Positions 46,153 through 53,591 of a stretch of DNA of 64,000 nucleotides are shown here, in pieces. This stretch comes from Escherichia coli (GTDB lineage Bacteria; Pseudomonadota; Gammaproteobacteria; Enterobacterales; Enterobacteriaceae). The notes under the pieces were generated by a model. That model did no database searches and was not told where the DNA came from. It saw only the letters and a list, made by a program, of their open reading frames with translations. The stretch's first letter is position 1. Each line of letters opens with the position of its first letter. Location: NCBI RefSeq assembly GCF_009931435.1, contig NZ_CP043414.1; one strand, written 5' to 3'. The position numbers and the translations under genes were made by a program.

Positions 46153-48618
<2,466 letters not shown>

Positions 48619-48634
48619 GTTCACTAAAAAATAG

Positions 48635-48663
48635 AACGGGGCCAAATCGGTCCCGTTTTTTTT
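48635..48663 (+). terminator. rho-independent terminator of glgP
   Basis: 9-bp stem AACGGGGCC/GGTCCCGTT (one G-U pair) with loop AAATC, followed by T8. Confidence 0.8.
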
Positions 48664-48712
48664 CGCCTTTATTTCGGAGAAGTGTCCAGAGGGGCAAGGG
48701 GATTCGGGGGAG

Positions 48713-48718
48713 TATAAT
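48713..48718 (+). promoter_or_regulatory. candidate -10 hexamer (TATAAT) for the glgP-glpD cluster
   Basis: Perfect TATAAT 18 bp upstream of the first ATG of cluster gene 1 and downstream of the glgP terminator; no good -35 seen. Confidence 0.35.
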
Positions 48719-48735
48719 TTCGCCATTCAGAAAGA

Positions 48736-50253
48736 ATGGAAAGAATAATGCAAAACAGAAAATGGATTTTGACCTCGCTGATAATGACTTTTTTCGGCAT
48801 CCCCATACTGGCGCAATTTTTGGCAGCGGTTATTGCCATGCTGGGGGCCGGGCTTGCCGCTATTCTTGAGGCTTGCAATTTACTCTTTACGCCAACAATT
48901 TATCTTCTACTCAACATCTTTATGCTGACGCTGGGGGCGATAATCCTATTTTTCTCTGGTCGCGTGTGGGCCGGTGATAGCGCACCAGAAAACAGAGAAA
49001 TAGCCGTCTGGCGGCAATGCTTTTTTCTTTTACCTGCACTGTTAACTCTGGTTGGCTGGATAATCACGCTACATCTGGCAGATTATCAACTTCGCCAGCT
49101 GGGAGCGGGTTGGTTGGCAAATCTTATGCTCCCCTGGCTGGGCGTATTGTTAGTCTCATTAGTCGGTGGTGAGTACTGGTGGATAGTCATTATTCCCGTT
49201 GGCGCGCATATCAGTTTTTCGCTGGGGTACGGCTGGCCAACCAGACATCCTTTAACCGGCACGTACGGGTTACGTTGCCGTAATTCCCTCCTGTTTATCC
49301 TTCTCATGCTGGTTTTTGTCGCTGGTTATCAGGCTTATTTATATAAACAGCTTAATCCTGGTGTTGGTGTACGCGAAAATATTGATACCTGGGCCTGGCG
49401 ACCCGATAAACTCAATAATCAACTGACGCCACTGCGTGGTAAACCGCAAATTCAGTTTACACAAAACTGGCCGCGACTCGATGGTGCTACGGCGGCGTAC
49501 CCAATTTATGCTTCTGCCTTTTATGCGTTGAGCGTTATACCGGAAGATTTCCACACCTGGGAATATCTGGAGAACTCTCGTACCCCCGATGCATATAACA
49601 GGATTGTTAAAGGTGATGCCGATATTATTTTTGTGGCGCAACCTTCCGGTGGGCAGAAAAAACGTGCAGAGGAATCGGGCGTCACTTTGAACTACACTCC
49701 TTTCGCCCGTGAAGCATTCGTTTTCATCGTCAATGCGGATAACCCGGTTAATTCCCTGACTGACCAACAGGTGCGTGACATCTTCAGTGGCGTAATTACC
49801 AACTGGCGTACTGTTGGCGGTAACGATCAGGAGATCCAGACCTGGCAACGCCCGGAAGACTCTGGCAGCCAGACAGTGATGCAATCGCAGGTCATGAAAA
49901 ATGTCCGCATGATCTCGCCGCAGGAAACCGAAGTGGCAAGCATGATGGAGGGAATGATTAAAGTTGTTGCCGAATACCGTAATACAAACAACTCAATAGG
50001 CTACACCTTCCGCTATTACGCAACACAAATGAACGCCGATAAAAATATAAAACTGCTAGCTATTAACGGTATTGCACCGACTGCGGAAAATATTCGTAAC
50101 GGCAAATATCCGTATATCGTCGATGCCTTTATGGTAACGCGGGAAAATACTACGTCAGAAACACAAAAACTGGTCGAATGGTTTTTAATGCCGCAGGGGC
50201 AGAGTCTGGTGGAAGATGTGGGCTATGTGCCGCTGTATCCAACAATGAAATAA
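48736..50253 (+). CDS. fusion protein: N-terminal polytopic membrane module (about 200 aa, 5-6 TM) plus C-terminal PstS-family (phosphate-binding-protein-like) domain
   Basis: 505-aa ORF (alternative ATG at 48748 has better SD spacing); hydrophobic N-terminus; C-terminal half is about 60% identical by eye to the next gene and carries PstS-like motifs (DIFSGVITNWRTVGG; RPEDSGSQTVM; IGYTFRYY). Confidence 0.7.
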   Translation: MERIMQNRKWILTSLIMTFFGIPILAQFLAAVIAMLGAGLAAILEACNLLFTPTIYLLLNIFMLTLGAIILFFSGRVWAGDSAPENREIAVWRQCFFLLPALLTLVGWIITLHLADYQLRQLGAGWLANLMLPWLGVLLVSLVGGEYWWIVIIPVGAHISFSLGYGWPTRHPLTGTYGLRCRNSLLFILLMLVFVAGYQAYLYKQLNPGVGVRENIDTWAWRPDKLNNQLTPLRGKPQIQFTQNWPRLDGATAAYPIYASAFYALSVIPEDFHTWEYLENSRTPDAYNRIVKGDADIIFVAQPSGGQKKRAEESGVTLNYTPFAREAFVFIVNADNPVNSLTDQQVRDIFSGVITNWRTVGGNDQEIQTWQRPEDSGSQTVMQSQVMKNVRMISPQETEVASMMEGMIKVVAEYRNTNNSIGYTFRYYATQMNADKNIKLLAINGIAPTAENIRNGKYPYIVDAFMVTRENTTSETQKLVEWFLMPQGQSLVEDVGYVPLYPTMK

Positions 50254-50278
50254 CGCTCGAGAGAAAGGAATCAGCGCA

Positions 50279-51271
50279 ATGAATAAATTCACCGGTGTTT
50301 TACTATTAGGTACGGCGTTACTGGCGGGATGTGTCGACCGGGAAGGGTACTATAACAGCGTCAGGGAAGAAGAGAGTCATGGACTGACGTCTCTGCGGGG
50401 GCAACCTGAATTACGTTACAGCGATGATTGGTCAAGATGGCCGAGAGTGTACGGCGCTACAGCCTTATACCCGCTGTATGCCTCCGCGTATTATGAATTA
50501 GTACCCGAGCCAAAAGATAAGGATCGAACCTCGCTGGCCTGGCAGGCGTATGGTTTGCAACAAACCCGAACAGCTGAAGCCTACGATAGTCTGATCAAGG
50601 GTACCGCGACGGTTATTTTTGTTGCACAACCGTCGGAAGGACAGAAAAAACGTGCAGAAGAAGCAGGCGTTAAACTGAAATATACCGCGTTTGCCCGCGA
50701 AGCCTTTGTCTTTATCGTTGATATCAAAAACCCGGTTAATTCACTTAGCGAACAGCAGGTCAAAGACATTTTTAGCGGTAAAGTGAGTCGCTGGAATAAA
50801 GTGGGCGGCGGTGACGAAAGTATAAAAGTCTGGCAGCGGCCAGAAGATTCTGGAAGCCAAACGGTTATGAAGGGACTGGTTATGCAAGATACTCCAATGC
50901 TGCCAGCCAAAAAATCCACTGTTATCGATCTTATGGGCGGTTTAATTACCGAAGTCGCCGACTACCAAAACACACCATCTTCCATTGGATACACCTTCCA
51001 CTATTACGTCACACGTATGAATGACAATATGCTCAAAATGCGCAAACAGATCAAACTGCTGGCTATAAATGGCGTTGCACCTACAGAGGAAAATATCCGT
51101 AACGGCACTTATCCGTACATAATTGATGCTTATATGGTGACGCACGAAAACCCTACGCTGGAAACGCAGAAATTCGTCGACTGGTTTTTAAGCCCGCAGG
51201 GACAGCAATTGGTAGAGGATGTGGGGTATGTGCCGATTCATGACGCATCATACGAATCATCAGTGCAATAA
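50279..51271 (+). CDS. PstS-family (phosphate-binding-protein-like) lipoprotein
   Basis: 330 aa; lipobox LLAGC after signal peptide; AAGGAA SD 8 nt upstream; motifs GATALYPLYASAY, DIFSGKVSRWNKVGG, RPEDSGSQTVM, IGYTFHYY align to E. coli PstS motifs (GAGATFPAPVYAKW, IYLGKIKKWDD, RRADGSGTSFVF, IGYVEYAY). Confidence 0.75.
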   Translation: MNKFTGVLLLGTALLAGCVDREGYYNSVREEESHGLTSLRGQPELRYSDDWSRWPRVYGATALYPLYASAYYELVPEPKDKDRTSLAWQAYGLQQTRTAEAYDSLIKGTATVIFVAQPSEGQKKRAEEAGVKLKYTAFAREAFVFIVDIKNPVNSLSEQQVKDIFSGKVSRWNKVGGGDESIKVWQRPEDSGSQTVMKGLVMQDTPMLPAKKSTVIDLMGGLITEVADYQNTPSSIGYTFHYYVTRMNDNMLKMRKQIKLLAINGVAPTEENIRNGTYPYIIDAYMVTHENPTLETQKFVDWFLSPQGQQLVEDVGYVPIHDASYESSVQ

Positions 51272-51873
51272 TGATGAATAAAATCAGACTTTATATTCCT
51301 CCGTTAATTCTTGGTTTTGTTATTGTGCCGTTGTTGGTGTGGCCGACGGTGGTTGCGCTGGCTGCTTCTGTTATCACGCTGAGTTTTCTGGGAGAGATAC
51401 TGTTCTCTATCCCGCTCATGATCAGGCATATTTCGCTTCTGCAATTACAACTATGGTTATCGGCTGAATATGCGCTTTTCTGCTGTGCAATGGTGGGCGT
51501 TGGTTGGCAATTTGCTCGTATAACTCAATCTGAATTGAAAAGCAGACTGCATTGTTGGCTGGTATTTGCACCAGTTTATTTCTGGTTGCTCCTGTGGAAT
51601 ATCATTTTCTATGTCGCGCCAGCGAATATTGCGTTGCTGGAGAATATGCGCAGTTTCTTTCTGACAGTTGTCTGGCTCCCACTAAATTTTTCACCATTTT
51701 GGTCCCAACCGTGGATTGACTTTGTCGGTCCAATAAGCGCACAGCTTGGTTTTGCGTTGGGATATTATTGCCAGTGGCGTAGCAAAAATAGAAGCCAGAT
51801 ACGGAAGTGGAGTGAGTGGGGAACGTGCCTGAGTTTTGTTACGTTGGGTATGATGGCGTGGGCTTTGCGGTAA
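51271..51873 (+). CDS. polytopic membrane protein, paralog of the N-terminal module of cluster gene 1
   Basis: 200 aa; ATG overlaps previous stop (TAATG); segment VGPISAQLGFALGYY resembles VGAHISFSLGYGW in gene 1. Confidence 0.65.
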   Translation: MMNKIRLYIPPLILGFVIVPLLVWPTVVALAASVITLSFLGEILFSIPLMIRHISLLQLQLWLSAEYALFCCAMVGVGWQFARITQSELKSRLHCWLVFAPVYFWLLLWNIIFYVAPANIALLENMRSFFLTVVWLPLNFSPFWSQPWIDFVGPISAQLGFALGYYCQWRSKNRSQIRKWSEWGTCLSFVTLGMMAWALR

Positions 51874-51923
51874 TTCCCTGACTCAAAAAGTAGGTCAGAT
51901 TGTTGACAAAGTGCACTTTGTTC

Positions 51924-52023
51924 ATGCCGGATGCGACATGAACGTCTTATTGGCCTACAAGACCATGCAAATTCAATATATTGCATAAGCCACGTAGGCC
52001 TGATAAGCGTAGCGCATCAGGCA
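51924..52023. repeat. REP pair (BIME) between the cluster and glpD
   Basis: GCCGGATGCGACATGAACGTCTTATTGGCCTAC and inverted GTAGGCCTGATAAGCGTAGCGCATCAGGCA, followed by TTTTTTGTTT. Confidence 0.75.
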
Positions 52024-52085
52024 GTTTTTTGTTTATCATCAGTCTCAGGTCAGATTGAAATCTGACCTGGCCACATTACGTTAAT

Positions 52086-53591
52086 TTACGACGCCAGAGA
52101 CAACCTCTGCTGCGTATACTCCCCCAGCCACTGACTCACACGAGATTGTTGATCCGCATTCAGCCACATGCCTTGTTTTGTGCGACGCCACAGGGCATCG
52201 TCGGCGCGGCGGACCCATTCGTGATCCACAAGGTATTTCAGCTCCGCTTCGTAGAACTCATGACCGAAATCTTCCCCGAGATCGCCTATCGCCCCCGCAT
52301 TGCCGAGCAGCAGTTCGCTGTTGCTGCCGTAAGTGCGCGCGTAGTGACGTGCCAGCGATTCAGTCAGGAACGGGTAACGGCGGCGCAGGCGGGCGGCATA
52401 ATCGTCGCGATCGCCTTCAATGGCACCACCCGGCAGCACGCTCTCTTTCGTCCACGCCGGGCCAATGCCCTGATAATACGGCGTCAGTTTTTCCAGCGCG
52501 TGCTCCGCCAGTTTGCGGTAGGTGGTCAGCTTACCGCCGAATACCGATAACAGCGGAGCTTTGCCGTTTTCATCATGGATATCAAGGGTGTAATCACGGG
52601 TAATGGCCTGCGGCGAATCAGATTCATCATCACACAGCGGACGCACACCGGAGTAGGTCCAGACGATATCGTCCCGGCTTAGCGGCTTTTTAAAGTGCGC
52701 GTTATACACTTTCAGCAGGTAATTGATTTCACTCTCTTCAATCTTCACCGCTTTCGGATCGCCTTTATACTCCACATCGGTGGTGCCGATAATGGAAAAC
52801 TCGTCCATCCACGGGATCACGAAGACAATACGTTTATCTTCGTTTTGCAGAATGTAGGCTTGCTTCTGGGTATGCACACGCGGCACGACAATATGGCTGC
52901 CTTTGATCAGGCGAATGCCATAAGGTGAGGGTAGATGCATCCCGTCGTCGAAGAACTGCTTCACCCACGGGCCGGTGGCGTTCACCAGACCGCGTGCCTG
53001 CCAGCTGTATTTTTTACCGGTATCAATATCTTCTGCTTCTACAATCCACAGGCCGTTTTCGCGGCGAGCAGAAGTGGCACGAGTACGGGTAAGCACTTCA
53101 CCGCCTTTACGCACCACCATCTGGGCGTTGGCGAGTACCAGACGGGCGTCGTCTACCCAACAGTCGGAATATTCGAATCCGCGCTTAATTTCCGGTTTTA
53201 ACACTGAATTTGTGCCAAAACGCAAACCGGTTGATCCCGGCAGGCTGGTGCGTTTACCCAGATGATCGTACATAAACAGACCAATACGGATCATCCACGC
53301 CGGACGCAGATGCGGGCGATGCGGCAGGCGAAAACGCATCGGGAAAGCGATATGGGGGGCCATTTTCAGCAACACTTCACGTTCAGCCAGCGCCTCGCTG
53401 ACCAGACGGAATTCATAGTGCTCAAGGTAGCGCAGGCCACCATGAATGAGTTTTGAACTGGCGGAAGAGGTCGCACAAGCGAGATCCTGCGCCTCCAGCA
53501 TCAGCACGGATAAACCGCGTCCAGCGGCGTCTGCCGCGATACCAGCACCATTGATGCCGCCACCTATCACAATCAGATCTTTGGTTTCCAT
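52086..53591 (-). CDS. glpD: aerobic glycerol-3-phosphate dehydrogenase GlpD
   Basis: ATG at 53591 (METKDLIVIGGGINGAGIA..., FAD motif); 501 aa; track ORF starts at an upstream GTG. Confidence 0.95.
   Translation of the reverse strand: METKDLIVIGGGINGAGIAADAAGRGLSVLMLEAQDLACATSSASSKLIHGGLRYLEHYEFRLVSEALAEREVLLKMAPHIAFPMRFRLPHRPHLRPAWMIRIGLFMYDHLGKRTSLPGSTGLRFGTNSVLKPEIKRGFEYSDCWVDDARLVLANAQMVVRKGGEVLTRTRATSARRENGLWIVEAEDIDTGKKYSWQARGLVNATGPWVKQFFDDGMHLPSPYGIRLIKGSHIVVPRVHTQKQAYILQNEDKRIVFVIPWMDEFSIIGTTDVEYKGDPKAVKIEESEINYLLKVYNAHFKKPLSRDDIVWTYSGVRPLCDDESDSPQAITRDYTLDIHDENGKAPLLSVFGGKLTTYRKLAEHALEKLTPYYQGIGPAWTKESVLPGGAIEGDRDDYAARLRRRYPFLTESLARHYARTYGSNSELLLGNAGAIGDLGEDFGHEFYEAELKYLVDHEWVRRADDALWRRTKQGMWLNADQQSRVSQWLGEYTQQRLSLAS

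Follow-up and report, generated by a model that had tools for sequence, protein, structure and literature searches.

Predicted fused and split forms of a PstS-like binding domain with a dedicated membrane module between glgP and glpD of Escherichia coli

We analysed a window of 64,000 nucleotides from Escherichia coli (assembly GCF_009931435.1, contig NZ_CP043414.1) and report here on three genes, which we call g1, g2 and g3, in the gap between glgP (46171-48618) and glpD (52086-53591). Profile comparisons indicate that this cluster holds one two-part system twice, once as a fusion of a six-helix membrane module to a periplasmic binding domain of the PstS type (g1) and once split into a PstS-type lipoprotein and a membrane module on its own (g2 and g3). 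No ATP-binding cassette (ABC) permease (pstC, pstA) or ATPase (pstB) genes are found among the open reading frames (ORFs) between glgP and glpD, in agreement with a preliminary description of the locus, and all three genes are under purifying selection. That description also knew of no function for these proteins, and we found none assigned in Pfam, NCBIfam, PADLOC, the PDB or the literature searched.

One two-part system in two arrangements

The gap contains three intact, co-oriented ORFs on the + strand, flanked by the glgP terminator and a pair of repetitive extragenic palindromic (REP) elements. Their parts are as follows.

48736-50253, + strand: g1, ORF of 505 amino acids (aa); membrane module, linker and PstS-type periplasmic domain
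48736-49353, + strand: membrane module of g1 (aa 1-206), with helices at 2-46, 53-81, 87-114, 124-144, 149-169 and 177-206
49471-50250, + strand: PstS-type domain of g1 (aa ~246-505), from alignments and Foldseek matches in the PDB
50265-50270, + strand: Shine-Dalgarno-like AAGGAA, from the sequence, inside the 25-bp gap between g1 and g2
50279-51271, + strand: g2, ORF of 330 aa; PstS-type lipoprotein
51271-51873, + strand: g3, ORF of 200 aa; membrane protein

The tight packing reported for these genes in the preliminary description, a 25-bp gap with a Shine-Dalgarno sequence and then an overlap of the g2 stop and the g3 start as TAATG, is exact in its coordinates. RefSeq homologues of g1 begin at the equivalent of its second ATG (48748, MQNRKW), and translation may start there instead of at 48736.

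The relationship between g3 and the N-terminal module of g1 is visible at the level of profiles. g3 matches no Pfam or NCBIfam family, and both large protein searches placed it among Escherichia-type sequences only. Between the g1 N-module and g3, BLASTP returned nothing significant, Smith-Waterman alignment against shuffles reached a z of ~3 only, and a g3 profile run against 1.84 billion representative proteins gave 42 matches, made up of Escherichia-type family fragments and P0268, with no g1-type protein and no other family. When the g3-family profile was aligned by hhalign with a profile of the g1-type module from 24 diverse species, the match was collinear end to end with a probability of 98-99% (E 5e-15 to 5e-17), and the controls (30 column-shuffled and 1 reversed) scored at most 19, versus 95 for the real pair. 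Motifs common to both include VPLL (helix 1) and P-x-(G/S)-x-Q-L-x-F-x-LGYY (helix 5). On this profile evidence g3 is a distant stand-alone paralogue of the g1 membrane module, as the preliminary description had proposed.

g2 carries a lipobox (MNKFTGVLLLGTALLAG-C18, with L15-A16-G17-C18 and Val at +2) that fits the pattern [LVI][ASTVI][GAS]C and is retained in the relatives P0239, P0241, P0246 and P0222. In alignment, the signal peptide of g2 (..LLAGC) corresponds to the last part of helix 6 of g1 (..FVAGYQ), and in a Superficieibacter relative the lipobox is likewise derived from helix 6. Because of this alignment and the profile paralogy of the modules, g2 and g3 together amount to g1 in parts. 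Recent tandem duplication was ruled out as the origin of g2 and g3: g2 groups apart from g1, in a clade of lipoproteins from Pseudocitrobacter (74% identity) and Salmonella (65-67%), and g3 is only ~18% identical to the g1 module.

A comparable pair is present in Pseudocitrobacter cyperus (L099:5001-7659), where a g2-like lipoprotein gene lies directly after glgP and overlaps by 4 nt a gene for a 351-aa protein. By hhalign (98.6%, E 5e-16) this protein contains the membrane module, which is joined to a vestigial binding domain without binding motifs. Because the lipoprotein is paired here with a module that carries only a vestigial binding domain, the module appears to do more than anchor, and the pair argues independently for the pairing of binding protein and module. 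The gap in this species continues with a 142-aa secreted protein of YRDxxG(H/N) repeats, present also in two further loci (L097 and L098), and then glpD.

We compared the window allele with that of O157:H7 Sakai and obtained ratios of nonsynonymous to synonymous substitution rates (dN/dS) of 0.15 for g1 overall, 0.24 for its membrane module, 0.08 for its binding domain, 0.10 for g2 and 0.18 for g3, with 0.003 for glgP and 0.023 for glpD. All three are therefore functional as coding sequences and less constrained than housekeeping genes. Their dS of 0.19-0.33 is similar to that of the flanking genes (glgP 0.19, glpD 0.27). Ancient divergent alleles were ruled out as the source of the ~9% nucleotide divergence, because dS is like that of the flanks and the excess lies in dN. 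A glgP at least 99% identical to that of the window occurs in 17 of 5425 complete genomes, with strain 2020CK-00188 as the best match; this count and the dS values of glgP and glpD therefore mark the window lineage as fairly divergent.

Binding pocket and membrane module

The PstS-family similarity read from the two genes is not spurious. Both g1 and g2 match Pfam PBP_like_2 (PF12849; g1 E 4.4e-29 over residues 250-484, g2 E 1.7e-29) and TIGR02136 (E ~1e-34), although their scores of 117.6 and 120.8 bits, respectively, miss the curated TIGR02136 cutoff of 206.6 bits. The C-terminal domain of g1 is 58% identical to g2, and full-length homologues of g1 at 91% identity carry the NCBI name PstS family. 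A full-length AlphaFold2 model of g1 (mean predicted local distance difference test, pLDDT, 83.7) was compared with the PDB by Foldseek; its matches are almost exclusively phosphate-binding proteins, as are all of the top ~40, with template modelling (TM) scores up to 0.79. The best structural match of the g1 domain is the orphan PstS-like protein Sll0540 (9L8J), followed by PstS proteins of Borrelia, Clostridium and Streptococcus.

Pocket residues were mapped by HMMER alignment of the family profile to solved PstS proteins, with conservation taken over 24 diverse homologues; the numbering was verified, as the E. coli PstS sequence used is exactly that of 1IXH. Of the six residues whose side chains bind phosphate in E. 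coli PstS, the g1 domain retains five; the exception is Asp56, which is replaced by Ala. The mapped positions, with their state in the family alignment, are listed here.

PstS T10: g1 T252, invariant
PstS S38: g1 T283, nearly invariant
PstS D56: g1 A301, nearly invariant as Ala, motif IFVAQPS
PstS R135: g1 R372, invariant
PstS S139: g1 S376, invariant
PstS G140: g1 G377, nearly invariant
PstS T141: g1 S378, invariant

In PstS, Asp56 accepts a hydrogen bond and so discriminates protonated phosphate from sulfate. These residues suggest that the oxyanion pocket has been kept but altered in g1-type domains, which may bind phosphate, a different tetrahedral anion or the phosphoryl group of a larger molecule.

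The N-terminal 206 residues of g1 are modelled as six helices (pLDDT 89.4, predicted TM-score, pTM, 0.85). Residues conserved across the module family (P23, G75, R93, W108, F119, P133, W148, P154, F161 and Q199) are mainly Pro, Trp, Phe and Gly; one Arg and one Gln, close to the periplasmic surface, complete the set. The module has no match in Pfam or NCBIfam, and word-indexed protein searches with g3 and with the g1 N-module returned Escherichia sequences only, many of them truncated. A structure search of AFDB50 matched the g1 module to its own family alone, from Enterobacterales to Firmicutes; no solved or predicted structure outside that family resembles it, and no transporter fold was matched. 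The membrane module is dedicated, family-specific and as yet unclassified.

Proposed mechanism and alternatives

As a tentative proposal, possible rather than probable, we favour an ABC-independent oxyanion receptor that would dock on its own membrane module and would signal or regulate rather than transport. Its parts would be a periplasmic PstS-type Venus-flytrap domain with an oxyanion pocket and a dedicated six-helix inner-membrane module. In g1 the module is followed by the domain in one chain; g2 is the domain with a lipid anchor derived from the last helix of the module; and g3, which the overlap with g2 suggests is translationally coupled to it, is the module alone. What we infer beyond these parts is a ligand class, a docking step and an output. 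The binding domain would close on phosphate or a related tetrahedral or phosphoryl-type anion, the loaded domain would dock on the periplasmic face of the module, where the helix pattern places R93, W148, P154 and Q199, and the module would hand the occupancy state laterally to another membrane protein, in regulation or sensing and not in movement of the anion. Lateral regulation or sensing is favoured over translocation because the module has very few conserved polar intramembrane residues and no cytoplasmic domain.

The favoured mode resembles that of LuxP-LuxQ and TorT-TorS, in which a periplasmic binding protein reports its occupancy to a membrane protein (binding-protein-dependent sensing is reviewed in PMC8050422). 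Unlike those pairs, the cluster contains no kinase, cyclase or chemoreceptor domain, and none is conserved nearby in a comparison of 80 related loci from many phyla. Other precedents are found in transport: OpuA and GlnPQ have substrate-binding domains fused to ABC transmembrane domains, and tripartite ATP-independent periplasmic (TRAP) and tripartite tricarboxylate transporter (TTT) systems combine a large 12-helix permease subunit (DctM or TctA) with a small subunit. These systems and the TRAP-associated extracytoplasmic immunogenic (TAXI) systems likewise have a binding protein fused to, or encoded beside, the membrane component that it serves, but the six-helix module of ~200 aa is unlike any ABC, TRAP (DctQM) or TTT (TctAB) component, and the cluster has no large permease subunit and no ATPase.

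PstS of the PstSCAB importer (PF12849; TIGR02136/TIGR00975; PDB 1IXH, 4GD5, 4EXL) is like g1 and g2 in fold, superfamily and ligand motifs (GAT..., T283 and R-x-x-x-S-G-S). The two proteins differ from it in scoring at about half the curated cutoff, in the change of Asp56 to Ala, in having no pstCAB and no Pho box, and in the six-helix membrane module to which they are fused or with which they are paired; the g1-type family also has the subfamily motifs FAREAFVF, WQRPEDSGSQ and IGYTFRYY. Sll0540 of Synechocystis, which is PstS-like and encoded away from the pst operon, matches the g1 domain with a Foldseek E of 5e-15 and a TM-score of 0.79 on the target, but is soluble, 240 aa long, without a membrane module and ~20% identical to that domain.

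Several observations weigh against such a receptor. Given the change of Asp56 to Ala301, free phosphate may not be the ligand. The residue at +2 after the lipid-modified Cys directs lipoproteins to the inner or the outer membrane, and Val at this position in g2 predicts outer-membrane sorting, away from g3. No Pho box was found upstream of g1, where the best match has 6/14 mismatches and equals shuffled sequence, and likewise none upstream of g1 homologues in five genera. Deletions and frameshifts of the locus are common in E. coli, as with the frameshifted g1 of E2348/69, and a frameshift is also present in E. albertii. Furthermore, in other E. coli, g3-like genes are coupled to an unrelated protein of 255-278 aa without a signal peptide. 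On a distant metagenomic contig (L097:121-1499), a 278-aa protein (50% identical to the 255-aa type) and a g3-like gene (34% identical) overlap by 13 nt, and this conserved pair therefore indicates that modules of the g3 type have a partner outside the binding proteins as well.

The binding proteins could instead be orphans that feed the housekeeping PstCAB importer or another ABC importer encoded at a different locus, with the modules as mere anchors. Their membership of the PstS superfamily, the retention of most ligand residues, the close structural matches, all of which are ABC-type phosphate receptors, and the existence of orphan PstS homologues such as Sll0540 (9l8j) speak for this explanation, which we nevertheless consider unlikely. 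Asp56 is lost, a Pho box is missing, and scores of 118 and 121 bits lie well under the TIGR02136 cutoff; as for anchoring, g3 has no binding domain yet is intact and under purifying selection (dN/dS 0.18), the module is kept in two genera beside a binding protein that already has a lipid anchor, where a mere anchor would be unnecessary, and module residues are conserved across phyla. It is quite unlikely, in our judgement, that the cluster encodes a new binding-protein-dependent transporter, in which the six-helix module, perhaps oligomeric, would form a translocation path fed by the PstS-like domain; such a system would be comparable to TRAP, TTT and TAXI transporters without being related to them. 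A transporter would suit the occurrence of the binding protein and its membrane part in one chain and as coupled neighbouring genes, the wide spread of a family that stands alone, and the continuing discovery of transporter classes that depend on a substrate-binding protein (PMC12344293). Its module, however, would have only six helices, with a shorter membrane part in Firmicutes, conserved residues that are mostly Pro, Trp, Phe and Gly with one Arg and one Gln near the periplasmic surface, and no fold similarity to any transporter.

Two further explanations set aside any dedicated receptor or transporter. Under one, which we hold to be improbable, these are envelope-protection or immunity-type genes of polymorphic toxin systems that neutralise an incoming toxin. 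Salmonella does have g2-like lipoprotein genes inside an Rhs-type orphan array, YbbD-family proteins follow g1 in other enterobacteria (ybbD of K-12 lies in the rhsD array), and the gap is variable and AT-rich; but the cluster in the window has no toxin gene, the Salmonella relatives stand within the Rhs-type array and not directly after a toxin ORF, PADLOC models match none of the three proteins, and in many phyla g1-type proteins are found on their own, in housekeeping contexts that are unrelated to one another. A dN/dS of 0.08 in the binding domain is unlike arms-race evolution, the oxyanion pocket is conserved, and none of the papers listed in our literature search connects PstS-like proteins with Rhs immunity. 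The other explanation, that the cluster is a relic in decay that no longer has a function in E. coli, draws on the K-12-type deletion, the frameshifts in E2348/69 and E. albertii, the many truncated fragments in databases, the completeness of g1 in only 62% and the presence of g2 in only 16% of genomes, and a very low array signal in O157. We give it little credence, since here all three ORFs are intact, as are their coupling signals, comparison with an allele at a dS of ~0.2-0.3 gives a dN/dS of 0.10-0.18, and synteny is retained in Salmonella and Klebsiella.

That the module and the PstS-like domain make up an unrecognised ABC-independent device that depends on a binding protein, whether transducer or transporter, from Enterobacterales to Firmicutes, Actinobacteria, spirochaetes and Verrucomicrobia, is a broader proposition that we regard as doubtful. 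If the receptor reading were true, thousands of genomes would mislabel proteins that are no parts of an ABC transporter, and a widespread family would combine a phosphate-type receptor with its own small membrane module, giving bacteria a new means of sensing or handling oxyanions in the periplasm. The same reading might account for the drop in type III secretion upon deletion of O-island 133 in enterohaemorrhagic E. coli. The presence of fused and split copies in one strain, together with natural deletion alleles such as yzgL of K-12, offers a convenient genetic entry point.

Distribution, neighbourhoods and boundaries of the locus

Full-length g1-type proteins (~490-520 aa) occur in Salmonella, Klebsiella, Phytobacter, Budviciaceae, Leclercia, Betaproteobacteria, Synergistaceae, Opitutaceae and Peptococcaceae, and shorter versions (~380-400 aa) are common in Bacillales; the membrane part of Firmicute members is shorter. 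Salmonella and Klebsiella oxytoca have a g1-type gene in the same glgP-glpD gap, so g1 is ancestral there, and of the three genes it is the only one that is clearly so. The view of the whole cluster as an intact ancestral locus, taken in the preliminary description, thus holds clearly for g1 alone; g2 and g3 are one of several alternatives and occur in 16% of complete E. coli genomes. Neighbour clustering across the 80 loci revealed no conserved partner gene and no linked ABC permease or ATPase; the only recurrent cluster consists of generic ABC ATPases at varying distances.

A survey of 5426 complete E. coli genomes found g1 at a coverage of at least 80% in 3347 (62%), g2 in 884 (16%) and the whole cluster in 883 (16%). 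In this species g2 and g3 are one of several alternative gene sets downstream of g1. Another state of the gap has g1 followed by a YbbD-family protein of 236 aa, a Cys-rich protein of 255 aa and a g3-like gene whose product is 67-69% identical to g3; Pfam has no match for the 236-aa and 255-aa proteins. Such different gene contents were seen at L004:2867-4955, L005:2564-4652 and L003:2956-4331, and one of these E. coli lineages (L005) has a fimbrial operon at the expected position of g1.

K-12 does not have the same three intact genes. Its yzgL, previously described as a pseudogene remnant with homology to periplasmic binding proteins, is indeed a remnant, left by a deletion of ~2.87 kb with its junction at a GAGTG(G)GG microhomology. 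Nothing of the binding-protein part survives, and what is left is ~73 codons of the g1 module joined, out of frame, to the last ~50 nt of g3. This remaining 3' end matches the g3 type of the window, so the ancestor of K-12 had a similar g3. Among the papers listed in a literature search on yzgL, none characterises the locus.

The cluster of O157:H7 Sakai consists of ECs_4272 (g1), ECs_4271 (g2) and ECs_4270 (g3), annotated as "membrane protein", "ABC transporter ATP-binding protein" and "hypothetical protein", respectively. ECs_4271 (L096:5412-6404) has no ATPase domain, and its annotation is therefore an error, which is repeated for the g2 orthologue in some UniProt and NCBI entries. The cluster sequence is thus already public in O157 Sakai, where it is functionally uncharacterised and mislabelled. 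By gene numbering and the Sakai annotation, the cluster is probably O-island 133, and an O-island deletion screen reported lower type III secretion upon deletion of OI-133, without follow-up (PMC3378721; repeated in the review PMC10877973).

Further relatives were seen in other contexts. In Salmonella the ruvC-ruvA interval holds a second, more distant module-plus-PstS paralogue (L011:7001-8497), and in Brachymonas such a paralogue lies directly after ruvB (L014:7001-8503). A stretch of Salmonella enterica (L012:4234-9909) contains two g2-like lipoprotein genes among repeated PAAR-type N-terminal fragments (MSGKPAARQNDMT...), together with a 135-aa HExxH ORF, after which comes a small lipoprotein, and an Ntox34 fragment with a YibA-like HEAT protein (PRK09687) behind it; the stretch resembles an array of orphan toxin and immunity genes of the Rhs type. 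The YbbD_head / PRK09781 family is represented downstream of g1 in Salmonella (L006:9564-10109) and Klebsiella (L007:9838-10958). In Klebsiella the conserved 45-aa YbbD head sits on a different tail, and the rest of PRK09781 comes next as a separate 139-aa ORF, which by its layout is a constant-head, displaced-tail pattern.

The boundaries of the cluster in the window, a glgP terminator and a REP pair, are borne out by folding and by repeat searches. The features outside the three genes are these.

48633-48663, + strand: intrinsic terminator of glgP, upstream boundary of the cluster; hairpin AACGGGGCC/GGTCCCGTT followed by T8
48713-48718, + strand: TATAAT hexamer, with no good -35 hexamer
51924-52023, no strand assigned: REP pair, like a bacterial interspersed mosaic element (BIME), downstream boundary of the cluster; one exact and one degenerate arm
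52044-52071, - strand: terminator-like hairpin of glpD; inverted repeat CAGGTCAGATT/AATCTGACCTG, -15.9 kcal/mol, z = -2.9

The glgP terminator hairpin (48633-48659) folds at -17.6 kcal/mol (z = -4.0), and 0 of 200 shuffles fold as well. The TATAAT hexamer could be part of a weak or activator-dependent promoter of g1, a possible reading of the sequence; a consensus promoter scan upstream of g1 gave as its sole result an overlapping weak site at 48720-48749. The cluster had been judged by eye to be AT-richer than its glg and glp flanks, and measurement agrees: its GC content is 45-48% and its GC content at third codon positions (GC3) 0.48-0.50, versus 50-55% and 0.59-0.60 for glgP and glpD.

The REP arm at 51994-52022 (- strand) is an exact copy of a REP present four times in the window (0 expected), and the second arm, at ~51926-51958, is degenerate and was recognised by eye. 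The REP-pair stretch is multicopy in E. coli genomes (median 18 places per genome). Between its arms, downstream of g3, the spacer gives a near-threshold match on the + strand (51959-52001) to the Rfam small RNA family ES036 (CssrF), at 35.4 bits versus a gathering threshold of 37.6 (E 1.7e-4).

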